DNA of 64,000 nt from Escherichia phage 121Q: the sequence record NC_025447.1, one strand, 5' to 3'. The notes under the pieces were generated by a model that saw only the letters and a list, made by a program, of their open reading frames with translations, was not told where the DNA came from and did not search any database. Below are positions 3,001 to 38,292 of the stretch, one piece after another; within the stretch, counting starts at the first letter, position 1, and every line of letters begins with the position of its first letter. Made by a program: the position numbers and the translations under genes.

Positions 3001-3612
3001 TTGTTGGTTAGATGCACCAGTAACGTTCAATGTTACTGCATTTAAGTCAGATAGATTAAACTCACCACCAAGTGTACCACTAATTGTCACATCGTTAAAT
3101 GTAGCAGTACCAGTACTACTAATATCTGTTGTACTTACATTAGTAATTTCTGCGGTATTAGCAGTAATTTTATCAAATGCAGCAGTAGTCCCAACATCAG
3201 CAGTAATATTACCTTTAAATGCTGTTGTTTCAGCAACTTCTAAGTTTTTAACTTTAGTTGCTTGTAGAGTGGTTGTACCAGCAGTTTGTGTAAAATCAGA
3301 ACCAACTGATACAGTACCGTTAAAGGTAGCGTTTGAATTAATTGTTGCTGTATCAGACCCGACAACTGCACTACCGATTGTAGTATTACCCTCAACACCA
3401 AGACCACCAGAAAGTGTTGCTTTGCCACCTACATCTAAAGTAGATGTAATGTTGGCAGTTGATGATTCAATGGCAGTAAAAGTTGCATTTGCAAAAGTTA
3501 CAGTACCATTTACAGTTAGGTTATTGTTGAAAACAGCATTTCCTTTGACTAAAAGATCCTTACCAACCGTACCAGCACCAGTAATATCTAAGTCAGTTTT
3601 TATTGAGTACAT
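1..3612 (-). CDS. Long tail fiber protein, partial (3' end lies beyond the window start); Gly/Thr/Ser/Asn-rich with internal tandem repeats
   Basis: Minus-strand ATG at 3610-3612 preceded by GGAGG; my translation begins MYSIKTDLDITGAGTVGKDLLVKGNAVFNNNLTVNGTV and stays open as far as I read. Absent from the ORF track, presumably because it has no stop inside the window. The plus-strand ORFs 386-3682 are its antisense frames. Confidence 0.6.
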   Translation of the reverse strand, partial: MYSIKTDLDITGAGTVGKDLLVKGNAVFNNNLTVNGTVTFANATFTAIESSTANITSTLDVGGKATLSGGLGVEGNTTIGSAVVGSDTATINSNATFNGTVSVGSDFTQTAGTTTLQATKVKNLEVAETTAFKGNITADVGTTAAFDKITANTAEITNVSTTDISSTGTATFNDVTISGTLGGEFNLSDLNAVTLNVTGASNQQGAVTFGANVTGINSTATFKDIRIGSNSESQTFRLSFPYTAPGKRPTVILQNEIQSELMSPANLTVLTSASFGNASLSSYGITGNGLNKLDYLTVSGNNTQSPDTPLLEVQKGKTKVADFEVTGTATIPNIESTGTANFNNINVSGLLGGTFQLDDINAVSLNVTGVTSLVGGVTLGSNITGYNSTASFKAISLGQNSQDAAVKLGFGYTAPGQRPTVILPNEVQSEVVSPSTLNVLKTATFGNASLSTYGITGNGLNKLDYLTITGNETQAPGTPFLQVGGKAILNDVEFTGTVTGLTVDVSGQDLTPNSVVAAANIKGATLESTGNTTVGAKLTVTGDIAGTTATLSGALSAGSVSSGSITGTTSVSAPTISASTEVTAPTITASGTVSGQTINGTNISATTLTAPTISGNTNFTENVDITGSLTVGSLDLSTTDINAKSITTTAGATIGGDLVVQGSFDLSAADLNVKSLTTSGIVKSNDLVNANVLPVLNSTTITATTVNADDITVTGSANLGTIYSSSSVLVGSTLTVTGETTTASLVTPTISNASGVTISNNTNVTGDLTVTGAVIPGSIDLATTDVNAKSITTTAGATIGGNLTVNGTVDLTTADVTVKSLTSTGAIVSNESTISSVLPKLQSTDATIATLGSTTANITNLNVTGASTVADVTSSGKVKAVSVETPTISNVDGVSISNNTSITGDLTVSGTVTPGAIDLSTTDVSAKSITTTAGANIGGDLVVSGTVDLSGADVSVKSLTSTGIITVSSAEGINVLPKVQSTEVTVSALNATNAVVSGDVSAATASISGAITGGSATLSGVGTALNVTNNATVGGVLTVGSITSAAENVSITKNTAITGNLAVSGTLTAGVIDLSTTDVSVKTLTSLGDATVQGNLTVDGTINLSSANIVGVTLESTGSTTVGTDLILTTGNITGSPSISGNLGVTGTTTLTGATTVSNTLNTAGKLTVNAGGIQVVAGGIQVDSGTITASSANISGSSTLNSA
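676..1800 (-). repeat. Three tandem copies of a ~400-bp coding repeat inside the long fiber gene
   Basis: Blocks starting near 676, 1088 and 1520 share long near-identical stretches (for example accagcggtagtagtaatggattttgcacttacatcagttgtgctcaaatc versus accagcagtagtagtaatggatttagcattaacatcagttgttgctagatc); boundaries approximate. Confidence 0.5.
2219..3210 (-). repeat. Two tandem copies of a ~480-bp coding repeat inside the long fiber gene
   Basis: Copy 1 about 2219-2700 and copy 2 about 2729-3210, both starting taatcta(g/a)tttgtttagacc...accagtaataccataag; encoded units share ...PGxRPTVILxNExQSExxSP...FGNASLSxYGITGNGLNKLDYLT.... Boundaries approximate. Confidence 0.5.
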
Positions 3613-3706
3613 TTATACCCTCCATTATAACCTTGTTAATATGTATATATTTAGTTTTATTATGCTGTTATCCAACAATTAATATGTTATTTGACAAAAG
3701 CAAATA

Positions 3707-3749
3707 TAATAAAAACCAGACTTATTTAGAACAAGTCTGGTTAATTTTT
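3707..3749. terminator. Bidirectional terminator hairpin between two fiber genes
   Basis: Stem CCAGACTT/AAGTCTGG (3716-3740) flanked by an A-run and a T-run. Confidence 0.55.
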
Positions 3750-4646
3750 TTACTTACCAGAGATGACAATCTTACCACTGAAAGAAATATCAGAAGTGAA
3801 GATTACATCACCAGTACTACTAATTTGTGTATCAGTCACTACCAATTCAAATGGAGATGACGAAACACTCCCAGGTGTTTTATTTGCATAAATTGAAATA
3901 TACAAATTATCTGGTGTTTGATTGTGTTCAGATGCAGGAATAGTGATTGTAAAATCACCATCACTAGAAACCCAATCTGCTTGGTTTACCAATTTACTAT
4001 AAGGTACTGTCATTGTTGTTGCTCCTATAATGTTTACTTTAACACTTGCATAATCTGTGATTTGACCAATCACATCAATTGTTATATCCCCAATACCACT
4101 AACTGTTACTGTGGTTTGGAATACTGATTCCAATGCAACATTACCTGGGTCACCTTGTAGTTGGATCATAATATCAGAACCTCTACCATGAACTGATTCT
4201 GGTAGTGTGTAAGTATAATGATCAGTAGTATCTGGCACTAATGTAAATGCAGAAACAGGAACTATTTCAGTAGTTACATATGAGCTATCAGTCCCAGGTG
4301 AGCTACCTTTAAATGGTTTCCAAATACCAAGATCTTTAATATAAATTTGAAGAACATTAGTACTATCAACCAAAAAGTAAACGTCACCATCTAGACCGAT
4401 CGAATCGGATGGTGCTGTTGTTCCACGTAAGATACCAGAACTACCACCACCACTGTGTGCGTTTAAATATCCCAATGTAACCAAGTGTGTGTTTGCAGTT
4501 GGTTCACCTGCTGAAATTGGAAGAAGTTGTGTTCCTGAGTAGTTTTGAATTTGCACAACACTACCATTTGTGGTAATCTGTGCACCATTCTTCCCAAGAA
4601 TGAAGGACTTCTTCATGGTTCCTTCTAAATTAGAAAAAACTGCCAT
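3750..4646 (-). CDS. Receptor-binding / tail fiber protein with N-terminal module shared with the 4663-6804 gene
   Basis: 298 aa; N-terminus MAVFSNLEGTMKKSFILGKNGAQI nearly identical to the neighbouring gene; GGAG ribosome-binding site upstream; terminator hairpin immediately downstream. Confidence 0.55.
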   Translation of the reverse strand: MAVFSNLEGTMKKSFILGKNGAQITTNGSVVQIQNYSGTQLLPISAGEPTANTHLVTLGYLNAHSGGGSSGILRGTTAPSDSIGLDGDVYFLVDSTNVLQIYIKDLGIWKPFKGSSPGTDSSYVTTEIVPVSAFTLVPDTTDHYTYTLPESVHGRGSDIMIQLQGDPGNVALESVFQTTVTVSGIGDITIDVIGQITDYASVKVNIIGATTMTVPYSKLVNQADWVSSDGDFTITIPASEHNQTPDNLYISIYANKTPGSVSSSPFELVVTDTQISSTGDVIFTSDISFSGKIVISGK

Positions 4647-4662
4647 TTTAATATAATCTCCT

Positions 4663-6804
4663 TTATGGTAGGGTTATGTAAGTTACGGGTTGGGCAGCTT
4701 TTAATGCTGCACCAGCGGCAGTTGCTGTTATGATAGGATCTGCAATATCAATTCTATATACGTTGTTTACAACATACACTGCACGAGTTATATACGTTCT
4801 CAAATCACCACCATTTTCACCAGCACCGGATATAATGATCTCAGTACCAGCAGCTTTTGCATATTGGTTTTCACCCCATGACACACCCAATGCTTCTATG
4901 TATGTTTGTCCTGCTACCGTTTGTCTAATTGTGTCATATTTTCCGAAAAAAGAACCACCAACAGTTACAATATATTTTCCACCCGATTGTTTATGAATAA
5001 TCGTGCCTTCAGAGAAATAGCGTCCCCCAGGAAAAGTATCGTATGGAATATAATATTGCTCAACTACAGGTATCAGTACTGGGCCACGGTGACCTGTACC
5101 ATCGATTGCAGTTGTAACTTTAAAGTTATTAGATGATTGGTCTATTCTGTCTACATACATTTTAGAAAAACTATATTTTGAAACATTACAATCATCTTGA
5201 ACAACACAGTTAGTCCAATTAGTATAAGTATATTTAGAGCGAGTATAGATACCACCACCTTCGCCTTCGGTAGAGAGGTGTTGACCAATTACATCTAATT
5301 CTTTAGTTCTAATATCACTAAATTTAGATGATGATGGCAAACCACGCCAAAGGATTTTAGAACAAGTGATATTGCTCAATTCTGTATTATTTAACCAATT
5401 ATCAGAACCGGAAGTATAAACAAGTATAGAAGACTCTGGAATATAGAGATTAGAAATTTTAAAGTTTCTAGGTGGTCCAGCAAAACGACCAGAAGTTACA
5501 CCCCAGTTTATTGAAACCATTCTATTTGTGATAGAAGGATCATTAAGCAAATGACCAGTCAACCCATCAATAATGAATTCTTTCGAACCATAAGTTATAA
5601 CACCAGCAGTGGTTAATCCAGTACCAACAGAAACTAAAGATGATGGATAAACTTCATTATTAAGTATTTTAAAGTCCATTCCTAATTCAACGTGTATACA
5701 TTGTCTAACATTATATAGTCTGTTATTTTTAATAACAAAGTTTCTGACATATTGTGTATCTGGTGCATCTAAACCATAAGGACCAGAACCAGCAACGCCA
5801 ATACCAATGCCCCAGTTTGAAAGTGGGATTGGAGCGTTAGAACCATCAACGTTTTCAATTACGTTTCCTTCAATCACAAAACCATCAGGATAATGTGAGT
5901 TAATTACGTTTAGTTCAATTGCATCACCATAGATATCATGAATATGGTTATATGAATATCTACCAACCTTCATTTTCTCACCAGTACCTTGTTGAAGAAC
6001 ACCATACTTACATTGGGTCATTTCATTAAAGCAAAAATCTATTGTTCCTGGTTGTGTCATACCTTGCATTAAAAATGCAGCAGTACTTGTGATGTTTATA
6101 AATTTATTAAAATAAAACTTACCATCTCCACCGAAGAATTTTAAATAACATCCAGTAAGTGTTGCAAATTGTATTTGGGAATTAATAACAGATACCATAG
6201 TACCACCGTTACCAGTAATAGTTCCCCCAAACCAAGTTACATCTTCTAGGTATATTGCAGTTTTGATACGGTAATTACCACCAGCCTGAATTTGGATTTT
6301 ATTTTCTTTAGCATAAGCAGCACATAAATTTACAGCAGCAGTGTCATCAGTTTCGCCATCACCTTTAGCACCAAATTCTTCTGGTGTTATATAAAACTGG
6401 GCCTGTTGAACTGTACCTCCAGTAATAAGTCCGATGAAATCACCACCATTTTTACTGGATAGAACTTTTTTATTAATGTATAATGATTTTACCCATGTAC
6501 CATTACTTTTTGCAAAAATATCAACAATACCATCTTCATCAATTTGAAAATACGTATTATTGTTCTTTCCTACATCATCGGTAGGGGGTACAACACCAAA
6601 TAATGCATTAGGGTTATCTTCAAGATATTTTACGTTAACTGCTGAATTAGGGTCAGATGAAGTTCCTACCTTCAGTGGTAGGAACTGTTCTCCTAGATAA
6701 TCTTTTATAGAAACTGAATCATTGATAAAATTTATTGAAGCACCTTTTTTCCCCAATATGAATTTGGGCTGCATAGTTCCTTCAAAATTAGAAAATACTG
6801 CCAT
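4663..6804 (-). CDS. Tailspike-like protein with pectate-lyase-type beta-helix motif (putative polysaccharide depolymerase)
   Basis: 713 aa; shared N-terminus MAVFSNFEGTMQPKFILGKKGASI; GDGETDDTAAV motif (encoded 6340-6363) typical of pectate lyase 3 / tailspike beta-helix domains; GGGAGG ribosome-binding site. Confidence 0.6.
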   Translation of the reverse strand: MAVFSNFEGTMQPKFILGKKGASINFINDSVSIKDYLGEQFLPLKVGTSSDPNSAVNVKYLEDNPNALFGVVPPTDDVGKNNNTYFQIDEDGIVDIFAKSNGTWVKSLYINKKVLSSKNGGDFIGLITGGTVQQAQFYITPEEFGAKGDGETDDTAAVNLCAAYAKENKIQIQAGGNYRIKTAIYLEDVTWFGGTITGNGGTMVSVINSQIQFATLTGCYLKFFGGDGKFYFNKFINITSTAAFLMQGMTQPGTIDFCFNEMTQCKYGVLQQGTGEKMKVGRYSYNHIHDIYGDAIELNVINSHYPDGFVIEGNVIENVDGSNAPIPLSNWGIGIGVAGSGPYGLDAPDTQYVRNFVIKNNRLYNVRQCIHVELGMDFKILNNEVYPSSLVSVGTGLTTAGVITYGSKEFIIDGLTGHLLNDPSITNRMVSINWGVTSGRFAGPPRNFKISNLYIPESSILVYTSGSDNWLNNTELSNITCSKILWRGLPSSSKFSDIRTKELDVIGQHLSTEGEGGGIYTRSKYTYTNWTNCVVQDDCNVSKYSFSKMYVDRIDQSSNNFKVTTAIDGTGHRGPVLIPVVEQYYIPYDTFPGGRYFSEGTIIHKQSGGKYIVTVGGSFFGKYDTIRQTVAGQTYIEALGVSWGENQYAKAAGTEIIISGAGENGGDLRTYITRAVYVVNNVYRIDIADPIITATAAGAALKAAQPVTYITLP

Positions 6805-29567: not shown

Positions 29568-30332
29568 TTAATCCTTTAATAATATGTTAAAATTATCATA
29601 AAAGTACTTTTTTAGTACCGAAATATAGTCTTCATTATACTTCAATCGAAGTAAATTTATTCCATTCTCGGTGCAGTACGTGTTTTTAATTTTATCATTG
29701 TGTTGAGTTTGTTTTAGTGATTTTGTTCCACCCCAATGCTCTGAACATTGAAAATGTTGTTCACCATCATATTCGATACACAAGTTTAAATCTTCAATAT
29801 AAAAATCAAATGGCAATGTTAAAATATTCTTACAATTATCAAATCTCTTTTCTCTAACATATTTAAATGAAGATAATATATTTTCTATATCTGATACTGC
29901 CTTGGATTGAGTACTATCTCTCATACATTTTTCACACCCGTATCTACTATTCAAGTGATTATCAGGTCGCTGGTAGAATATACCATGTATTGGACAAATT
30001 ATTGATATATGTGTTTTATTATTAACATAATTAGCCATACTATAATCAAATTTATTTTTAAATTTAAAATTGGCTTTTTTCTTGAAATTTAAAAAATTAT
30101 GTGGACTTTTTTGCCTATTTGTATTATATTCAATAGAACATTTCATGCATCCTTTGCCACATGTATGGTCATTTGGTGTTTGTAGAAAAAATCCATGTTT
30201 TGCACAGCCAATCCATACTTTTGTTTTAGCATTATGATATTTAACCATACTATAGTCATATCGTATACCATGAACTTTTATCGCATTGGTTACAAATTTA
30301 TATTTTGTCGATCTAGTGGTTGCATATTTCAT
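29568..30332 (-). CDS. Homing-endonuclease-like protein: two zinc-ribbon repeats plus C-terminal PD-(D/E)XK-like motif
   Basis: 254 aa; repeats KVWIGCAKHGFFLQTPNDHTCGKGCMKC and HISIICPIHGIFYQRPDNHLNSRYGCEKC; C-terminal FDFYIEDLNLCIEYDGEQH. Inserted between baseplate genes. Confidence 0.5.
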   Translation of the reverse strand: MKYATTRSTKYKFVTNAIKVHGIRYDYSMVKYHNAKTKVWIGCAKHGFFLQTPNDHTCGKGCMKCSIEYNTNRQKSPHNFLNFKKKANFKFKNKFDYSMANYVNNKTHISIICPIHGIFYQRPDNHLNSRYGCEKCMRDSTQSKAVSDIENILSSFKYVREKRFDNCKNILTLPFDFYIEDLNLCIEYDGEQHFQCSEHWGGTKSLKQTQHNDKIKNTYCTENGINLLRLKYNEDYISVLKKYFYDNFNILLKD

Positions 30333-30367
30333 ACATCACTCCATGATTTATATAGAAATATTTATTC

Positions 30368-30394
30368 AAAAAGAAAAGCACTCCGAAGAGTGCT
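30368..30394 (-). terminator. Rho-independent terminator
   Basis: Stem AGCACTC/GAGTGCT (30377-30394) followed on the minus strand by a T-run. Confidence 0.5.
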
Positions 30395-30401
30395 TTTGTA
30401 A

Positions 30402-30797
30402 TTATAAAGACGATACTGAATATGTTGCCATTCTGTTATTACTTCTTGCATCGAATACAATAGTAAGTTCTTCTAATGTATCCAATACTACGTACTGTAA
30501 TACAATATTCATTTGGTATCCATATTCTATTCTTGAAATTTGTAATTTTTTAAGATTTAAACGTGGGTCTAAGCTAATTATTCTACGGGCATCTGCTTCT
30601 AAAAGGTTGATAGTATTATAACCTTCCAATTCAAATAGCAAATCCCATGCAATAAACCCATAGTCAGCATCAAATGCTCGTTCACCTTTTTTTGTATTGA
30701 AATGATTCATTAAATCTTGGCGAACCAATTCACTATCATACAATGTTTCAGTTCTACCAACTACAGGGGTAGAAAACCCTTTAAAAACAACTGCCAT
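30402..30797 (-). CDS. Baseplate wedge protein, gp25/gpW-like
   Basis: 131 aa; TKKGERAFDADYGFIAWDLLFE matches my recollection of T4 gp25 TRKGSRPFDPEFGCDLSDQLFE. Confidence 0.6.
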   Translation of the reverse strand: MAVVFKGFSTPVVGRTETLYDSELVRQDLMNHFNTKKGERAFDADYGFIAWDLLFELEGYNTINLLEADARRIISLDPRLNLKKLQISRIEYGYQMNIVLQYVVLDTLEELTIVFDARSNNRMATYSVSSL

Positions 30798-30812
30798 TGT
30801 CTATTTCCTTTA

Positions 30813-31301
30813 TTATACGGATTCAACGATACGTGCCATCTTTTCCGCTCGTGAAGTGGTTTGTTTATACCATGTACTATCACGCAATTCTTTACCAGCA
30901 GTTTTGTAATCAGCTTTACCTAATGCGGTCATTGCTTTTTTAAATTTCAAAACTTTGGTTTTTCCCATTTGGAATACCATTAACCATAATACACGTTGTA
31001 CCTGTACTGGTGCGGTCATACCGAATTGTTCATAAATTGATTTTGCATCATTGTACGCAGTTTGAGCATCTTTGAGAAGAAGTTGGTCAGCTTGAGCTTC
31101 GGTCAAACCATTCTTGAAATTTTCACCAGGAAGAACTAGATGACCATAACCAATAGTATCAAGACCTAAACTGTCTTTATATACCCAAAACTTATCATTT
31201 TTAAAATAACCAAGTTTTTTCTGATAAGCAATAGTTCCTTCAAATTCTTTAATTTCCTTAAAAAATTGCTCATCTGTATTTTTAATTTCCCATTTACTCA
31301 T
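30813..31301 (-). CDS. Endolysin, T4-lysozyme-like (GH24)
   Basis: 162 aa; FEGTIAY...LDTIGYGHL and VLWLMVFQMGKTKVLKFKKAM...WYKQTTSRAEKMARIV parallel T4 lysozyme (MVFQMG, WYNQTPNRAKRV). Confidence 0.85.
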   Translation of the reverse strand: MSKWEIKNTDEQFFKEIKEFEGTIAYQKKLGYFKNDKFWVYKDSLGLDTIGYGHLVLPGENFKNGLTEAQADQLLLKDAQTAYNDAKSIYEQFGMTAPVQVQRVLWLMVFQMGKTKVLKFKKAMTALGKADYKTAGKELRDSTWYKQTTSRAEKMARIVESV

Positions 31302-31337
31302 AAAGATATCCTCGTTTTATTTATAGTGCTAAAATAT

Positions 31338-34001
31338 TTATTGACATGCCTCCAAACGACGAGCCATTAACTCCGCACGGCGTGTGGTTTGGCGATACCA
31401 AGCAGAATTGCGGATTTGTGCCGCTGCTTGTTTATAATTACCTTTTGCCATTTCTGATAACATAGTTTTAAATTTCAATACACCACCTTTACCCATCTGA
31501 AATACCATTTGGCATAGTACTTGTTGAGCAAGATAAGGAGTTTTCATGTTATATGAAGCATAAATTGATTTGGCATCATAAATTGCTTTACTACTATCAC
31601 GAACTAACATATCATTTGCTTGTTGTTCAGTTATTCCATCAGAGAAGTTTTCACCGCTAACAATTAAGTGACCGTAACCAATAGTTGGATATCCACGACT
31701 ATCTAAATAACGCCAGAACTTACCATTACGATAATATCCCTTTGCTTGTTGATATTGTAATGTACCCTCATATTCTTTTAATTCAGAAATAAACTGAGCA
31801 TCACCTGGAACAACTTTCCAATCTATGGCTGTTTTATCAACATTACCTATATTATAAGTTGGTTGCTCAACTGGCGTAGTTGAAACACCACTTCTTTGTG
31901 TTCTTCTTCGACGAGGAACATGTCGTGAACCACGTTGTGAATAACCTGTACCAATTGTTTTAATTTTTGTAGTAACTACTAATTCATCACTATCAACAGA
32001 AGGTTGCACTACTGCTTGAGGTGCAGATTGATTGGTTGCTTTTCCTGCAATTAATGTTTTATTGGCTGCGTCAGAACCAGTACCAGTTTGAGATGCATAA
32101 AATAGACCCGGATCAACTGAACCGCTAAAACCAAGCACGTTAGCTGATGTAACACGTATTTCAAACTGTATAACACCATTTGCTTTACCAACAACTTGGC
32201 CTTTTTGAACAACATCTTTGTTTAATAAATCAGATTGAATATTATAAAATACAGATTTATATCCTGACTTATGTTGTATTAACAGTGCACCATTAGTAAT
32301 TACTATTACACCACCATCGGGTGCAACTATGTCACCTTTACATTGTATTTCCCATCCAGAACGATCTGACTTCCCACCACTTTGTGTTGGAACACCTTTC
32401 CCCCAATAACCATATTGGCGAATAGTACCACTACATGGCATGAACATATGTAAACCTTCATATGTAATACTATATCCAGTCATCCCAGGGTCAGATGTCA
32501 TTAAATCTTGAGATTGCACTTGTTCAGTTTCTGATGTATAGTTAACAAACTGAACAGCTTCAGTGTCTTGTGCTACGGGTAATTCTGGTGATACATCATT
32601 TGCTGGTTGTGGTTGTACTGGTGATTCACTAGAACCACTTCCACCACCTTGTCTTGGTGGTTCAACATAACTACCATGATTTTCAGCGTTAACCCATGCA
32701 GCAATATCATGAATGTGTTCATTAAGACCAGCAGATGGTGTTCTAAAGTTTGGTGCAGTAAATTCAGCAGTACCGCTATTACCACCACTATTAACTGTTA
32801 ATGTTTGTCCACCACCACTAATAATTGCTGATGATGATCCAATTAGGTTTGCAGATGTTGCGGCAGAAATAGAAGCATTTGAACCAGCCGTAATATCAGT
32901 ACTGCTACCACTTTGCATACGTAATGATGCAGCAGTAACTAAACGAAGGTCTGCCCCAGAATTAACAACAACTTGTCCACCAACTTTTGCATCAAGAGCA
33001 CCAATTAGATCTAATTTAGTATTTGCACCAACTCGTGCATTGAAATCTTGTCCGGTTTCAATATTATATGAACGTCCAGCAGTAATATTAATATCTTGAC
33101 CAGCACGAATATTAATATTCTTATCACAGTGCATGTCAATATCACCTTCACCAGTGAATTTTATACGTGCAGTGCCATCACGGTTAATTAAAAGAACATC
33201 ACCAGTAGCTTCTGATAAAAGAAGTTGTGCACCACTACGTGTTTTTATTACGACACCTTCATTTTTACGAGAACCAACACGTGTATCGTTTACTGGGTTA
33301 TTAAATTGTGTATCTTGATATCCATCTGGGTCTTGATCCCACGTTGGTGCTGTTAATTCCTCTTCAGTATATCCATCATCAATAATAAAACTATTACCAC
33401 GTGGCGAAGACATACCATATACAGTACTGGTGGTTTGTCGAGTACTACTACGATTCGCCAACCCAGCTTCTTCGTCATATAAAAGGTTTTGCTTTTTAAG
33501 ACCTGCGATAATTGGAACGTTAGCATATTTGTCTTGCATATCGGTAGTGATAGTGTTACGATCATAGTCAGTAACAGGAAGTGGCATATCAGTTCCACCA
33601 TAATTACTTACTTCAGTTGCCATGCCTGGAACCATAGTATTCATACGCTGGTCATATACACAACCAATCCAATATGCTTGGAATGTACGGGCTTGTGCAA
33701 AAATTACAACAACTGTACACCCTACATCTGGTGGTACTGCCCAAAAACCGTATCCTTTTGGATATTGACCATATGCATCAGCACTTGGAATACCTGGTGT
33801 TTTACCAGCAAAAGGAGACATGTAAGATGCTTCTATCCATGATTCTTTTGAGTTTTTATCACTTTGAGAACCTTGTATCCAAACTTTCAGTTTTCCTGAT
33901 TTAGTTGGATCTCTGTTATCCATAACAGTTGCTAACTGCGGATAAGATGGGTCAAAACGACCCAACTGCTGTTGTGCATACTTTTTACTTGTATCTGCCA
34001 T
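31338..34001 (-). CDS. Baseplate central spike: gp5-like N-terminus, beta-helical repeats, degenerate M23/LytM-like domain, C-terminal T4-lysozyme-like domain
   Basis: 887 aa; repeat region INIRAGQDINITAGRSYNIETGQDFNARVGANTKLDLIG...; M23-like GDIVAPDGGVIVITNGALLIQHKSGYKSVFYNI...VQKGQVVGKANGVIQFEIRV with the HxH motif replaced by QFE; C-terminal EYEGTLQY...PTIGYGHL...MVFQMGKGGVLKF lysozyme domain (about 31338-31829). Confidence 0.7.
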   Translation of the reverse strand: MADTSKKYAQQQLGRFDPSYPQLATVMDNRDPTKSGKLKVWIQGSQSDKNSKESWIEASYMSPFAGKTPGIPSADAYGQYPKGYGFWAVPPDVGCTVVVIFAQARTFQAYWIGCVYDQRMNTMVPGMATEVSNYGGTDMPLPVTDYDRNTITTDMQDKYANVPIIAGLKKQNLLYDEEAGLANRSSTRQTTSTVYGMSSPRGNSFIIDDGYTEEELTAPTWDQDPDGYQDTQFNNPVNDTRVGSRKNEGVVIKTRSGAQLLLSEATGDVLLINRDGTARIKFTGEGDIDMHCDKNINIRAGQDINITAGRSYNIETGQDFNARVGANTKLDLIGALDAKVGGQVVVNSGADLRLVTAASLRMQSGSSTDITAGSNASISAATSANLIGSSSAIISGGGQTLTVNSGGNSGTAEFTAPNFRTPSAGLNEHIHDIAAWVNAENHGSYVEPPRQGGGSGSSESPVQPQPANDVSPELPVAQDTEAVQFVNYTSETEQVQSQDLMTSDPGMTGYSITYEGLHMFMPCSGTIRQYGYWGKGVPTQSGGKSDRSGWEIQCKGDIVAPDGGVIVITNGALLIQHKSGYKSVFYNIQSDLLNKDVVQKGQVVGKANGVIQFEIRVTSANVLGFSGSVDPGLFYASQTGTGSDAANKTLIAGKATNQSAPQAVVQPSVDSDELVVTTKIKTIGTGYSQRGSRHVPRRRRTQRSGVSTTPVEQPTYNIGNVDKTAIDWKVVPGDAQFISELKEYEGTLQYQQAKGYYRNGKFWRYLDSRGYPTIGYGHLIVSGENFSDGITEQQANDMLVRDSSKAIYDAKSIYASYNMKTPYLAQQVLCQMVFQMGKGGVLKFKTMLSEMAKGNYKQAAAQIRNSAWYRQTTRRAELMARRLEACQ

Positions 34002-34014
34002 AATATTTTATTCC

Positions 34015-36264
34015 TTAATCAACTATACTATCGTGACGTTTGAGTGCACGAATTACAATTGCAGCTTGAATTTGTTGTGTAAAAGAACCACCTGCACCAA
34101 AATCATGAACAATTTTATTAACACGATAAATTGTTTGGTTAAATGTGGTTGGTGTATTAATATCCAAAACACCAGTGTTATCATTTATTGATATTACTGG
34201 TTGTAATTTTAGTAATAGATACGCTTCAGATGTTATATAATTTGCTACATGATAATCATCTGGGTTAATTTCCATATCTTCACCATTAATTACTTGTTCT
34301 AGATATTGTAAGTAAGAGTAATCACTCCACCCTAACCAGTACGGGTCGCCTACTACACGCATATCGAGTTTACACAAAAAAGGTCTATTGTAATAGTTGT
34401 CACGTATTTTACGTCTATCCATTTCATATGTGCTGCTGTTATCGTTTAACGAAGCGGATAAAGTTGTTTCATTGTTAGTTGCTTCGGTTGGCATTGTGAA
34501 CACTTCACCATAACGGTGACCAACACCATCAGTACCGCCATCGTTTTCTTCATAAGTGGTTACATAATCTTCAATATATTGAGGTAAAACATTGACTTGA
34601 TAGTTATTATAACGGTCTTGTTCTTCTGCGTTACCAACCTGCATTTGATTTTTTGCTAAAGTTTCAACTTCAGTTAACAATTGTTGTTGGGCTTGTGTTA
34701 ACATCCCTCCTAAATCACGAGTTACACGTAAATCACTTGTTTTTGCCCATGCGTCTGGTATACTATTGTATTGTACACCTTGAATATTGAGTTCTTGGGA
34801 TGTATGTGTACCTGCATGGTTCGCTACATCTTGTATCGGACCAGGGTTACGTGTAGTGGCTACGAAAAATTGCTGATCAAATTTCAAATCCAAATCAAGT
34901 ATCTCACTATTAAGCCCACTAAATTGATAATTATAAGTTTTCATGTTTATTTTTGGTTTTTGATCATTAGGATCTACGTATTTTTCTGCGTTCTCAAAAA
35001 AGTACTCAAATGTGAAATTTTCAGGTTGTAAATCCGATTCATGAACAATATCACCTATTTTAAATCTAACAATATAAAAAATTACTTTATAAACAGAAGT
35101 ATTACGATAATTATCAAAACCAACGTATTGTTTAACTGGTATAATGTTTACAAATTGACGCACACTAGTACTATCATCGGCTTGTACAGTACATGTATCA
35201 ATAACGTCATCAATAATTCGAGATATAGGAGTACTTGGGTTCCATGAAAAGTTTTTAGAACCTTGTGCACCACTTTTAGTTGTTCCGGCCTCTGCCATTT
35301 GTTTAGAATCATAGTTTATAAACAAATCTTGCAAATCAGGTGCTACTTTAAATTCGAAAAATTTACCTTCGGATAATTCACCAAATTTATATCTAAGATA
35401 ACCATATTGTTGGTCAGCCATCTGATTTAATTTATCTTCTAAATCAAAGCAGAAGTCACCAAAGTTTTCAGCAGTACAATTGAATGGTTCTTTTAAGGTC
35501 CATTCAATGTTATCAACTAAAGCTGCTCTATTATGAACTAAGTTCATAGTATACATCATAGTACTACCACTTTGTGAAGCACTTGCAGTAACACTATTAA
35601 TTTTAACTGACCAGCGTCTTGTTGTTTCTGGGATAATTTCAGGTATTCCATTTTTATTAAAGCCAATAAACTTTAATTCCAAGATCAATGGCAAGTCCAT
35701 AAATTTATGATATCTAAGTTTGTTACTTAACGAAATTAATTCATCATATAGACTCATACTATTATTTTCAGACATATTAAGTACTGCTGTATTAAAACAA
35801 TAGTTTGTTGTCATTCCTGGTGTTGAAGGTCCAGCTTGTGTCATTTGTACACTAGTGATATTATATTTGCCAGTAACACCACTTTCTGATATCACATGTC
35901 GTTGCACTTCTGCATCTGGGTAAAGCCAAAAGTTTTTAAAATCATCTTTATCTAAGGCAAATAAACAAAAGTGCCAAGTTGGGTTATCATATTTCAATAA
36001 TTTATTGTCATACGGTATTACAAACTGACTTAAATCGAGATCTTCATAAACTTGATCAACACTAGCACTTTGTTTTGGTAATGATACTACATTACTTACA
36101 TTTGCTTTGTAATTATTTTTTGTAATAGTTTTTACATCATTTTGTAATGTATTTGCTGTAGCTTTCAAACTATCAAGTGCATTAGATGTGGTGGTTTTAG
36201 CCTTACCAGTAATACTTGTAATATCATTTTGAAAATTATCAACTGTACTTCGTAAATCTGCCAT
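34015..36264 (-). CDS. Hypothetical baseplate or tail protein (749 aa)
   Basis: ORF immediately upstream of the spike gene in the same operon; coiled-coil-like N-terminus; function not determinable from sequence. Confidence 0.4.
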   Translation of the reverse strand: MADLRSTVDNFQNDITSITGKAKTTTSNALDSLKATANTLQNDVKTITKNNYKANVSNVVSLPKQSASVDQVYEDLDLSQFVIPYDNKLLKYDNPTWHFCLFALDKDDFKNFWLYPDAEVQRHVISESGVTGKYNITSVQMTQAGPSTPGMTTNYCFNTAVLNMSENNSMSLYDELISLSNKLRYHKFMDLPLILELKFIGFNKNGIPEIIPETTRRWSVKINSVTASASQSGSTMMYTMNLVHNRAALVDNIEWTLKEPFNCTAENFGDFCFDLEDKLNQMADQQYGYLRYKFGELSEGKFFEFKVAPDLQDLFINYDSKQMAEAGTTKSGAQGSKNFSWNPSTPISRIIDDVIDTCTVQADDSTSVRQFVNIIPVKQYVGFDNYRNTSVYKVIFYIVRFKIGDIVHESDLQPENFTFEYFFENAEKYVDPNDQKPKINMKTYNYQFSGLNSEILDLDLKFDQQFFVATTRNPGPIQDVANHAGTHTSQELNIQGVQYNSIPDAWAKTSDLRVTRDLGGMLTQAQQQLLTEVETLAKNQMQVGNAEEQDRYNNYQVNVLPQYIEDYVTTYEENDGGTDGVGHRYGEVFTMPTEATNNETTLSASLNDNSSTYEMDRRKIRDNYYNRPFLCKLDMRVVGDPYWLGWSDYSYLQYLEQVINGEDMEINPDDYHVANYITSEAYLLLKLQPVISINDNTGVLDINTPTTFNQTIYRVNKIVHDFGAGGSFTQQIQAAIVIRALKRHDSIVD

Positions 36265-36275
36265 ACGTTACTCCA

Positions 36276-36590
36276 TTAGCCTATGTTTCGAGTACCATTA
36301 AGATAATTCTGTACTCTTTGATTTGCTGGTATTCTAATTGTTACTCCACTTTTAAAATTATATATAGGATCTTCTCCTAGTATGTCTGGATTTAACAATG
36401 CGAAAATATAATATAAGCGTTCATTACCATACATTTCGTATGCTAAACGCCAAGGTTGATATTCATATTTCAATGGGATCTCATAAAAATCATCAGTATC
36501 AGCCGGAACAATATCACGTGGTAAATTATACCCAAGATACCATGTTTGTTTCACCTTAGCGTAAGGTGAGTATTGACTATAGTTGGACAT
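36276..36590 (-). CDS. Small tail protein with possible LysM-like segment
   Basis: 104 aa; LYYIFALLNPDILGEDPIYNFKSGVTIRIP loosely resembles a LysM motif; 1-nt overlap with the upstream gene. Confidence 0.35.
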   Translation of the reverse strand: MSNYSQYSPYAKVKQTWYLGYNLPRDIVPADTDDFYEIPLKYEYQPWRLAYEMYGNERLYYIFALLNPDILGEDPIYNFKSGVTIRIPANQRVQNYLNGTRNIG

Positions 36591-37321
36591 TAAATGAATC
36601 CTCCTTTACGTAATAGTTCACCACGTTTGAATGCATTGAGGTTGAACGTTTTAGTCATATAATCCGATGTTGGTTGTTCTTCAAGTTGTAACATAACTGA
36701 GATTTTTTGTGGAACCCAAACTTCATCTTGTGGGTTCATATATCCAGTACTTCTAAGTTGTTCGAAGAATTTTCTACTATCCATGTCGGATAAATTAAAA
36801 GTACTATCGCTACTATTCAACGGAACTTGAATATAAGAAACATCATTTGGGTAAGTAAAATTATAAGATTTTAAAATAACAGGAATATCATTATATGTAT
36901 AACGACCATATCCACTTAGAAGTAAGATTGGTGGTGGTGCACCTGCAATTGCGAGTTCGGGGTTATTAGCCGAAGCAGCTTGTCTACCAAAATCCATCAA
37001 TGAAACAGAACGTATAAAATGAACACATGCCAACGCATACATAGCTTCTGCTGCTGTATTTGCATAAAATTCACCCTGAATAGTGAAAACTGTATTAGTA
37101 GTGTTCTTATAGTTGTTATAGTTACTGTTGGTATGTATAGGAGACTGTGTTTCATACTGAATTGACCTTTGTTCAGTAATTGTTGGTGTTACAGTCCAAA
37201 CCAACCCATTAGTTGGACGCAGAAACGAAAGTAGTGTTGGTTCGGAGCTATCCCCGAAATCACCATATACATAGTTAGCACCTGCGGCTTTAGGTCGTAA
37301 TCGAATTCTACGATCAATCAT
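36590..37321 (-). CDS. Hypothetical tail or baseplate protein
   Basis: Start moved to the ATG at 37319-37321 (GGAGAA 8 nt upstream, downstream of a TATAAATA late promoter); the ORF-track start at 37411 has no ribosome-binding site. Confidence 0.4.
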   Translation of the reverse strand: MIDRRIRLRPKAAGANYVYGDFGDSSEPTLLSFLRPTNGLVWTVTPTITEQRSIQYETQSPIHTNSNYNNYKNTTNTVFTIQGEFYANTAAEAMYALACVHFIRSVSLMDFGRQAASANNPELAIAGAPPPILLLSGYGRYTYNDIPVILKSYNFTYPNDVSYIQVPLNSSDSTFNLSDMDSRKFFEQLRSTGYMNPQDEVWVPQKISVMLQLEEQPTSDYMTKTFNLNAFKRGELLRKGGFI

Positions 37322-37356
37322 CTTTTTGATTCTCCATAATAAGGGAACATTTGATG

Positions 37357-37364
37357 TATTTATA
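37357..37364 (-). promoter_or_regulatory. T4-type late promoter TATAAATA
   Basis: Minus strand reads TATAAATA about 36 nt upstream of the ATG at 37321. Confidence 0.45.
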
Positions 37365-37366
37365 CG

Positions 37367-37395
37367 TGGGACAAAATGCTTTTTGGTGCTATAAT
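37367..37395 (+). promoter_or_regulatory. Sigma70-type promoter (TGGGAC-N17-TATAAT) for the sigma-like gene
   Basis: TGGGAC 37367-37372, 17-nt spacer, GGTGCTATAAT with TATAAT at 37390-37395; same motif as at 42068 and 63957. Confidence 0.5.
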
Positions 37396-37452
37396 AACAT
37401 TGATGGTACAAGGATTGTACCTATTGGATTTAAACATGGAGAGTAAAATACA

Positions 37453-38292
37453 ATGACAAATAGACCAAAGCGTAAAAAGTATCTCAATAATGCTGATTTA
37501 CTTCGTGAAATACAAAAAAGTAAGATTTCATACTGCTGGTTATTAGACAAATCATATAGTATGTATGATTATATTGTTTTTCATGAGTCAGAAATTACTG
37601 CTGAGTTACTTGAAAAAGCCAAAGCAGCACGAATCAAACGACTAAACAATGAAATGCTTGATAGTATTCGTGAAAAGGAAAGTATGAGTGCTAAAAAAGC
37701 TAAAGAATATGCAGATGAAAATAATTTAGTTATCACTGATGTTCCAATCGATGAAGTTGTTATTCGTGTTATCACTGATGAACATATTCCACCCGACACT
37801 AGAGTTAACTTTGAACCATTCAAGCATTACATTGTAGATAATGAAGGAATTCTCTATGAAGTATGTCGTTCTCATTGGAAAGGAGATCTTGAAACTGGTG
37901 AATTCAGTACTGTTCATGGTAAAATTACAAATGAACTAGGGAAGATGTTCATTAAACTTGCTGAGGAAATCTCTCATAAATCTAATTACAGAAACTATAC
38001 ATACTTAGATGAAATGATGGGTGATGCAAGAATACAATTAGTTAAAAACGCACTTCTCTTTAAAGAGAGCATTCTTTATAAAAAAGATAAACCAGCAGTT
38101 CAGCTAAATCCTTTCTCTTACTATACATCATTCGTAAACAATAGTTTTCGTTCTATATTGAATAGTGAGAAAAATGTTCGAAATATACGTGATGATTTAC
38201 TTGAAATGCATGGCTTTACGCCATCACATACACGTCAAATTGAAATTGAATTGAACATGATTGAAAGGAAAAATGAAGATGGCTCTGTTTGA
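37453..38292 (+). CDS. Putative late-transcription sigma factor, gp55-like
   Basis: N-terminus PKRKKYLNNADLLREIQKSK resembles my recollection of T4 gp55 (PKYNYVNNKELLQAII); adjacent to the gp47/gp46 homologs as in T4; TATAAATA motifs occur upstream of structural genes. Longer than T4 gp55, so tentative. Confidence 0.45.
   Translation: MTNRPKRKKYLNNADLLREIQKSKISYCWLLDKSYSMYDYIVFHESEITAELLEKAKAARIKRLNNEMLDSIREKESMSAKKAKEYADENNLVITDVPIDEVVIRVITDEHIPPDTRVNFEPFKHYIVDNEGILYEVCRSHWKGDLETGEFSTVHGKITNELGKMFIKLAEEISHKSNYRNYTYLDEMMGDARIQLVKNALLFKESILYKKDKPAVQLNPFSYYTSFVNNSFRSILNSEKNVRNIRDDLLEMHGFTPSHTRQIEIELNMIERKNEDGSV

Follow-up and report, generated by a model that had tools for sequence, protein, structure and literature searches.

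The 64,000-nucleotide stretch of the Escherichia phage 121Q genome analyzed here (record NC_025447.1), called the window below, contains an open reading frame (ORF) at 31338..34001 that encodes a protein of 887 amino acids (aa) and 96 kDa. The genes and motifs located by coordinates below are on the minus strand, and coordinates are window positions unless another sequence is named. The ORF is a real gene, and its product forms the central spike of the baseplate in an Asteriusvirus, a PBECO4-like jumbo myovirus of the RaK2 group. From the N-terminus to the C-terminus, the spike is composed of an OB-fold, a β-helix, an HxH segment, a first linker, a LytM/M23-fold domain, a second linker, and finally a lysozyme domain of the GH24 type. 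The LytM/M23-fold domain, in which the catalytic positions of M23 peptidases are substituted, is the main subject of this report.

A first-pass annotation, made from the sequence alone, had already named the protein a spike. This identity holds because the protein contains a Phage_base_V OB-fold and a VgrG-type β-helix, has baseplate genes as neighbors, and has orthologs that are found in virions by mass spectrometry (MS). The orthologs include PBECO4 gp534, RaK2 gp078, CBB_240, and phAPEC6 Gp241. The phrog_13211 family covers the protein end to end with 1815 bits, and the gene is 95% identical in DNA sequence to its ortholog in approximately 20 PBECO4-like Asteriusvirus jumbo phages. Among the orthologs, phAPEC6 Gp241 was found in virions as a 95.9 kDa protein with 7 peptides (PMC7247149), and CBB_240 was likewise found in virions (PMC5259590). 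The GenBank annotation of the Kae01 ortholog also records virion MS detection. RaK2 gp078 was not detected by virion MS (PMC3622015). The published virion MS tables give the full predicted mass and say nothing on cleavage of the spike (PMC7247149).

The LytM/M23-fold domain

The LytM/M23-fold domain spans aa ~515-655 (32037..32459). When the full-length spike was scanned with Pfam, three matches were returned, each above its own cut-off, and PF01551 gave no match even at an E-value of ≤1. When the domain was isolated, PF01551 matched 10 out of 10 orthologs, with a best E-value of 9e-7. The window copy of the isolated domain has an E-value of 3.4e-4 and 21.2 bits, which is under the 28.7-bit cut-off, and one ortholog (P0004) exceeds the cut-off with 30.1 bits. 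Reliance on the full-length scan would have led to a wrong rejection of the M23 link, since scans of the isolated domain recover the match.

A profile of the domain was searched against 1.84 billion sequences and returned approximately 100 further proteins at E ≤ 1e-3, six of six inspected being M23/LytM proteins. In a Foldseek search with the isolated domain, all 44 matches at E ≤ 1e-3 were LytM/M23 structures. The domain has the LytM β-sandwich fold, and the M23 relationship proposed in the first-pass annotation is found by profile and fold searches alike. That annotation placed an M23-like block at approximately 32142-32369; the block is present, but the domain is larger.

The register of the catalytic motifs was taken from profile alignments to zoocin A, to NlpD, and to a set comprising both active and inactive M23 proteins, all of which agree. 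The HxxxD position is occupied by R547-S-G-W-E551 and the HxH position by V610-I-Q612, and the loop bearing the latter is shortened. The position of the third catalytic His (YxH; His260 in LytM) is occupied by N587. The canonical positions are therefore R547, E551, N587, V610, and Q612. The first-pass annotation was right that the metal ligands are substituted, which is the case at five out of five positions, but its motif register does not stand. The CKGD sequence (C554-D557) that it read in place of HxxxD is three residues off, and the QFE sequence (Q612-E614) that it read in place of HxH is two residues off.

The substitutions were followed in 18 orthologs, 12 from phage genomes and 6 from metagenomic representatives, down to 30% identity. 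Orthologs beyond the protein homolog search described below were gathered by tblastn against phages and by an exhaustive representative search. The two H(x)nD positions are R, H, S, or N and E, I, T, or D, respectively, and His and Asp occur together in no ortholog. The YxH His is replaced by N, D, G, Y, or S. The two HxH positions are V, I, N, S, T, G, or K and Q, E, D, K, R, I, Y, or L, with His at neither. Each of the 18 proteins retains at most one canonical catalytic residue, and none has a conserved His upstream or an HxH anywhere in the domain. An intact catalytic set on proper alignment, which would have spoken against the annotated degeneracy, is thus absent from all of them. The invariant residues H577, E614, R616, and D630 fall at positions conserved for the fold. 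Of these, H577, E614, and R616 are shared with the catalytically dead EnvC and NlpD, and D630 corresponds to the C-terminal DP motif of zoocin A.

As read from these alignments, the domain is a degenerate LytM throughout the lineage and the catalytic loss is ancient, because the five canonical positions are substituted and vary freely in the 18 orthologs. Since all five ligand or catalytic positions are substituted and variable in every ortholog, the domain is predicted to be unable to coordinate zinc in the canonical way and not to be a zinc endopeptidase.

The domain is nevertheless well conserved. Between orthologs with 32% identity, 26 of approximately 154 positions are invariant. In overall conservation, the domain is roughly on a par with the lysozyme domain and clearly ahead of the linkers. 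All 71 phage records keep the domain, as do 7 metagenomic representatives. Compared with PBECO4, it has 41 synonymous and 7 non-synonymous differences, with a ratio of non-synonymous to synonymous substitution rates (dN/dS) of 0.036 and dS of up to 0.6. The dN/dS of the spike lysozyme domain in the same comparison is 0.021. By this codon comparison, the LytM domain is under strong purifying selection. It combines the LytM fold, the loss of the metal ligands, and purifying selection, as expected of a degenerate LytM domain.

Among phage proteins, those that commonly carry M23 domains are tape-measure, hub, internal, and lysin proteins. The tail-tip M23 domains of phi29 gp13 and lactococcal Tal2009 differ from the one described here in that they retain both H(x)nD and HxH and have endopeptidase activity (PMC9662197). 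Their hosts are Gram-positive, and they are not gp5/VgrG-type spikes.

Muralytic domains on tail spikes are familiar, and parts of this layout have been published. The C-terminal position of the lysozyme was reported in 2013 for RaK2 gp078 as a "very unusual domain composition" (PMC3622015), and the difference in domain order from T4 gp5 was noted for both RaK2 gp078 and CBB_240 (PMC3622015, PMC5259590). The central M23 match (pfam01551, E-value of 6.5e-4) was reported in 2017 for the CBB ortholog and other RaK2-like phages (PMC5259590). A literature search found no paper noting the degeneracy of the spike M23 domain, and this degeneracy is the sole new detail.

Needle, linkers, and lysozyme

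The gp5/VgrG-type OB-fold spans aa ~19-118 (33648..33947). It matches Phage_base_V (PF04717) at aa 23-116 with 29.8 bits (cut-off 23.8) and aligns with the OB-fold (residues 364-449) of 9jg8, a type VI secretion system (T6SS) VgrG structure. The N-terminal 470 aa of the spike match the OB-fold and β-helix of T6SS VgrG structures in the PDB with an E-value of 1e-5.

The OB-fold is followed by a conserved region at aa 119-250 (33252..33647). Its identity across orthologs is 56-100%, among the highest of all spike regions, and it is also present in the short PA5oct-type spike. This region has no Pfam or PDB match, and the AlphaFold2 (AF2) monomer model has a predicted local distance difference test score (pLDDT) of just 22-38 here. 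It may fold only within the trimer or against the hub. The full-length monomer model is poor (pLDDT of 52, predicted template modeling score of 0.28) and was consulted only on where domains begin and end, on disorder in the linkers, and on secondary structure.

The triple-stranded β-helix is of the VgrG/DUF2345 type and spans aa ~251-425 (32727..33251). DUF2345 (PF10106) matches at aa 278-329 with 34.9 bits (cut-off 30.7). A profile of aa 340-447 is colinear with the last ~90 residues of Pseudomonas aeruginosa VgrG1 (4uhv, E-value of 3.5e-6; 4mtk, 1.6e-3), and the native end of the VgrG1 chain aligns at aa ~425.

Directly after the point where the VgrG1 β-helix ends, the spike has a post-helix segment (32664..32726) with a conserved HxH in the sequence E428-H-I-H-D432 (EHIHD; 32706-32720). 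H431 is invariant and H429 is at least 90% conserved among 12 orthologs, and the HxH is also present in the orthologs P0004 to P0008. The HxH is reminiscent of the apex of P2 gpV and phi92 gp138, which binds iron, and the segment may be a candidate metal-binding apex. If the HxH is a metal-bound apex, the cargo would emerge from the very tip of the needle. The profile match of this segment to VgrG1 4uhv was rejected as evidence of an apex metal, as the alignment enters the His-tag of that construct; reliance is placed on the colinear β-helix stretch alone.

The PA5oct-type spike of Pseudomonas phage vB_Pa-PAC2 is 477 aa in length. It is homologous to the window spike over aa 23-403 only and has no LytM or lysozyme domain. 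The database annotation of its gene (positions 3414-4847 of the vB_Pa-PAC2 sequence) is inherited and misleading. As judged by alignment, aa ~447-887 of the window spike make up C-terminal cargo that extends an already complete spike, in the manner of "evolved" VgrGs, because the VgrG1 C-terminus aligns at aa ~425 and the PA5oct-type spike ends without the LytM and lysozyme domains.

The two linkers are the least conserved parts of the spike and have a pLDDT below 50 in the full-length AF2 model. Linker 1 (aa 447-514, 32460..32663) is acidic with an isoelectric point (pI) of 4.05. It is of low complexity, rich in Gly, Ser, Pro, and Gln, and carries a conserved GGG and a conserved PANDV. Linker 2 (aa 656-725, 31827..32036) is basic with a pI of 10.5. 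Within it lies the conserved motif IGTGYSQRGSRHVP (31914-31946 with flanking positions), identified by alignment with distant orthologs included; this motif could serve as a docking strand or a cleavage site. The general form of this motif is I-x-[ST]-x-[YFL]-x-x-[RS]-G-x4-P; it precedes the RRRR sequence and is kept even in marine relatives. RRRR itself (aa 697-700, 31902-31913) is lineage-specific. The first-pass annotation described a basic RRRR linker before the lysozyme, and both the RRRR and the basic character of the linker are present in the window, but RRRR is not conserved among orthologs, where its position reads RRRE, VRRP, RRTS, RKTT, TRLT, or LPKG.

The GH24 (T4-type) lysozyme domain comprises aa 726-887 and, with the stop codon, extends over 31338..31826. 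It follows the β-helix, and its C-terminal placement, unlike that in T4 gp5, is as described in the first-pass annotation. Phage_lysozyme (PF00959) matches at aa 765-882 with 44.5 bits (cut-off 22.3), and the PDB matches are the T4 gp5 lysozyme domain and T4 lysozyme (T4L), with E-values of 1e-11 to 1e-8. D767 aligns with the catalytic Asp (D20 in T4L) and is invariant in 12 orthologs. T773 is at the position of Thr26 in T4L. E745 is also invariant in the 12 orthologs and in the AF2 model directly follows an N-terminal helix (735-744), like E11 in T4L. A family-specific insertion of ~13 residues between E745 and D767 prevented a direct alignment of the Glu, which MAFFT mis-paired. The spike lysozyme looks catalytically competent, with E745 and D767 as the putative catalytic residues.

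The spike resembles T4 gp5 in having an N-terminal OB-fold, a triple β-helix, and a GH24 lysozyme paralogous to a free-standing phage lysozyme, and in being encoded in a baseplate cluster beside a gp25-like gene. The order differs, being OB-fold, lysozyme, helix in T4 gp5 and OB-fold, helix, LytM, lysozyme in the window spike. The window spike also has the additional conserved 130-aa region after the OB-fold and the additional degenerate LytM domain, for a length of 887 aa compared with ~575 aa for T4 gp5 (584 residues in 1k28 chain A). The "evolved" T6SS VgrGs, for example Vibrio cholerae VgrG-3 with its C-terminal peptidoglycan hydrolase, share a homologous OB-fold and β-helix and carry enzymatic cargo after the β-helix end. 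The window spike differs from them in being a phage protein without the gp27-like N-terminal half, and in having a two-domain cargo of which one domain is predicted to be non-catalytic.

Neighboring genes and mosaic boundary

In PBECO4, the spike gene (gp534) is flanked upstream by a gene whose product is a structural protein of 749 aa and by a gp53-like gene, and downstream by genes for a 162-aa lysozyme, a gp25-like protein, and a gp6-like wedge protein. The spike gene of the window has the same neighbors, the gp53-like, gp25-like, and gp6-like wedge genes among them. The upstream 749-aa protein was considered as a gp27-like hub, and this assignment was rejected as no PDB or Pfam match was found.

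The next gene downstream of the spike encodes the free-standing GH24 lysozyme of 162 aa (30813..31301), a paralog of the C-terminal domain of the spike. The two are 52% identical over 159 aa without gaps (E-value of 2e-63), and the insertion is common to both. The free-standing lysozyme gene is at the same position in PBECO4, A4, Yen9-04, CBB, GAP32, 7t3, Kae01, XaC1, and Hallingskeid. It is displaced in RaK2 and does not adjoin the spike in Vibrio phage 2.275.O. According to the CBB paper, the presence of its ortholog in virions was not confirmed, and another gene is predicted to encode the endolysin (PMC5259590).

A pattern search located a sequence resembling a T4 late promoter, TATAAATA, at 31318-31325. 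This is a match to the consensus only. It lies in the 36 nucleotides that separate the spike stop codon from the ATG of the free-standing lysozyme, 17 nucleotides before the ATG. A second copy at 37357-37364 is just upstream of the first gene of the baseplate block, with the start taken from the PBECO4 annotation. The 64 kb window contains 7 copies in total, compared with ~11 expected by chance. A scan of the window for sigma-70 promoters was at chance level, with 48 sites compared with 49 expected. A hairpin with a 10-base-pair stem followed by a T-run is located at 30374-30397, right after the gp25-like stop codon and ahead of a homing-endonuclease ORF. From its sequence, this hairpin looks like an intrinsic terminator.

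The DNA identity between the window and PBECO4 is ~100% over 32600-37500 and 83-98% over 30346-32550, with a sharp boundary. Within the spike gene, codons 1-514 have a dS of 0.01-0.07, while codons 515-887 have a dS of 0.55-1.1 and a dN/dS of 0.01-0.04. The divergent tract covers the LytM domain, linker, and lysozyme of the spike, together with the free-standing lysozyme and the gp25-like gene. Over 31338-32550, identity to the window is at most 89.5% in any phage record. The position of the breakpoint, just upstream of the LytM domain, suggests an exchange of the cargo module through recombination with an unsampled lineage.

The homing-endonuclease ORF is of the HNH type, is 254 aa in length (29568-30332), and matches phrog_559 with an E-value of 1.6e-57. 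It is located between the gp25-like and gp6-like wedge genes and is not at that site in PBECO4. In phage JP4, a homing endonuclease that is 97.6% identical is present at apparently the same site. Co-conversion of the divergent tract with the endonuclease is unsupported, because JP4 has the same endonuclease yet its spike is just 95.0% identical overall, like that of PBECO4.

A protein homolog search with spike aa 468-700 returned a single sequence (P0001), an NCBI partial protein of 159 aa assigned to Morganella morganii on a 479-nucleotide contig. It is 99% identical to spike aa 355-513. This sequence is a fragment of an Asteriusvirus spike in a bacterial assembly, probably through phage carry-over or contamination.

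Proposed role of the LytM domain

To our knowledge, every characterized degenerate LytM domain works as a binding module by means of its groove. The LytM domain of EnvC binds the interaction helix of an amidase (PMC10268282). In DipM, the lytic transglycosylase SdpA and the amidase AmiC are both bound by the LytM groove and stimulated (PMC10336132). EnvC, NlpD, DipM, and ActS, which are catalytically inactive LytM regulators of autolysins, are among the known systems closest to the spike. They differ in that they are bacterial periplasmic proteins, have coiled-coil or LysM modules, and act on the amidases or lytic transglycosylases of the cell itself. Unlike in these LytM factors, the groove positions are not conserved in the phage domain, and partner binding by it is proposed by analogy.

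The closest analog is PrgK of the pCF10 type IV secretion system, which is likewise a degenerate LytM fused to a muramidase in a DNA-translocating machine, a precedent from 2024 (PMC11323569). The LytM and CHAP domains of PrgK are reported together to down-regulate the fused muramidase, and both had earlier been reported to be able to bind peptidoglycan (PMC11323569). PrgK differs in that its muramidase is of the SLT type rather than GH24, and in having the additional CHAP domain. It is membrane-anchored in a Gram-positive donor and is not attached to a spike.

The protein is a trimeric cell-puncturing spike in which aa 1-~425 make up a gp5/VgrG-like needle of OB-fold and β-helix. The LytM and lysozyme cargo is tethered past the end of this needle by the two flexible linkers. 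From this architecture, the following sequence of events is proposed. Tail contraction would drive the needle across the outer membrane, and the lysozyme would then cut the glycan strands. The lysozyme is presumed to be the peptidoglycan-opening enzyme because the catalytic Glu and Asp are kept. The LytM domain would act through binding rather than cutting, because its catalytic positions are lost yet it is under strong purifying selection. By analogy with the bacterial proteins, its docking site may be the lysozyme or the conserved linker motif, and it would thereby restrain or time the muramidase activity. It may also, or instead, hold the lysozyme on the stem peptides of the peptidoglycan. 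Taken as a whole, the statement that the LytM domain is a cis-acting regulatory or targeting partner of the neighboring lysozyme is given a probability of approximately 0.55.

Three observations weigh against this proposal. The down-regulation by PrgK was not seen on Gram-negative sacculi (PMC11323569). The residues that replace the catalytic ones vary, so the sequence alone does not reveal a conserved groove for binding. The pI of the LytM domain ranges from 5.0 to 9.2 among orthologs, which argues against simple electrostatic binding of peptidoglycan.

Binding could also serve the structure of the virion. The dead LytM domain would then mediate protein-protein contacts while the virion is assembled or the cargo is packed. 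It could, for example, dock the three lysozyme-bearing arms on the β-helix, the hub, or the tape-measure tip, and peptidoglycan hydrolysis would not be directly affected. Among the strong profile and fold matches of the domain are SpoIIQ (3uz0, 3tuf) and Csd2 (5j1l), which use degenerate LytM domains purely for protein binding. The lineage-wide conservation of the domain together with the flanking linker motif is consistent with such a role, and a cargo of ~45 kDa per chain on a membrane-piercing tip would need stowing. However, the related PA5oct-type spike assembles without a LytM domain, and the LytM domain always co-occurs with the lysozyme, which suggests a functional pair. A purely structural role is considered unlikely, although it deserves weight.

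The binding partner could alternatively belong to the host. In the periplasm, the LytM domain could mimic EnvC, NlpD, or DipM and dock on the autoinhibitory or regulatory helix of AmiA, AmiB, or AmiC or of lytic transglycosylases, switching them on at the penetration site so that the hole opened by the lysozyme is enlarged. It would be surprising for a virion protein to breach the wall through activation of host enzymes instead of catalysis of its own. This hijacking of autolysins is doubtful. Identity to EnvC is ~18%, active M23 enzymes score nearly as well, and the groove-equivalent positions are not conserved among orthologs. T4-type lysozyme needs peptide-substituted N-acetylmuramic acid, and activation of amidases would remove this substrate.

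Residual catalysis is very improbable. A peptidoglycan peptidase with a non-canonical active site or an odd H(x)nD spacing would be in keeping with the variable spacing tolerated by M23 enzymes, for example H(x)7D for phi29 gp13 and H(x)12D for LasA (PMC9662197). His is present at the first position in RaK2 and P0004, and Asp at the second in P0008. However, there is no conserved His upstream of strand 2, HxH is present in no ortholog, and the HxH loop is shortened. The sole invariant His, Glu, and Asp residues are the fold-conserved ones, of which H577 and E614 are shared with dead EnvC and NlpD. Least credible is a decaying remnant of a once-active M23 peptidase that merely separates the lysozyme from the spike, since the loss of all catalytic residues and the free drift of their replacements are set against the invariant positions (26 of ~154 at 32% identity), the dN/dS of 0.036 where dS reaches 0.6, the presence of the domain in all 71 phage records and 7 metagenomic representatives, and its better conservation than that of the linkers.

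What is added here to the published layout is that the central "M23 peptidase" appears to be dead across a large jumbo-phage lineage while under strong selection, with the lysozyme beyond the needle end. Database annotations or enzybiotic designs that treat the spike as a dual lysozyme and endopeptidase would be wrong. If it is true that the LytM domain tunes or targets the lysozyme, phages would have in this spike a counterpart of PrgK, the self-regulating muramidase, and the concept of the LytM factor would extend from bacterial cell division to virus entry.

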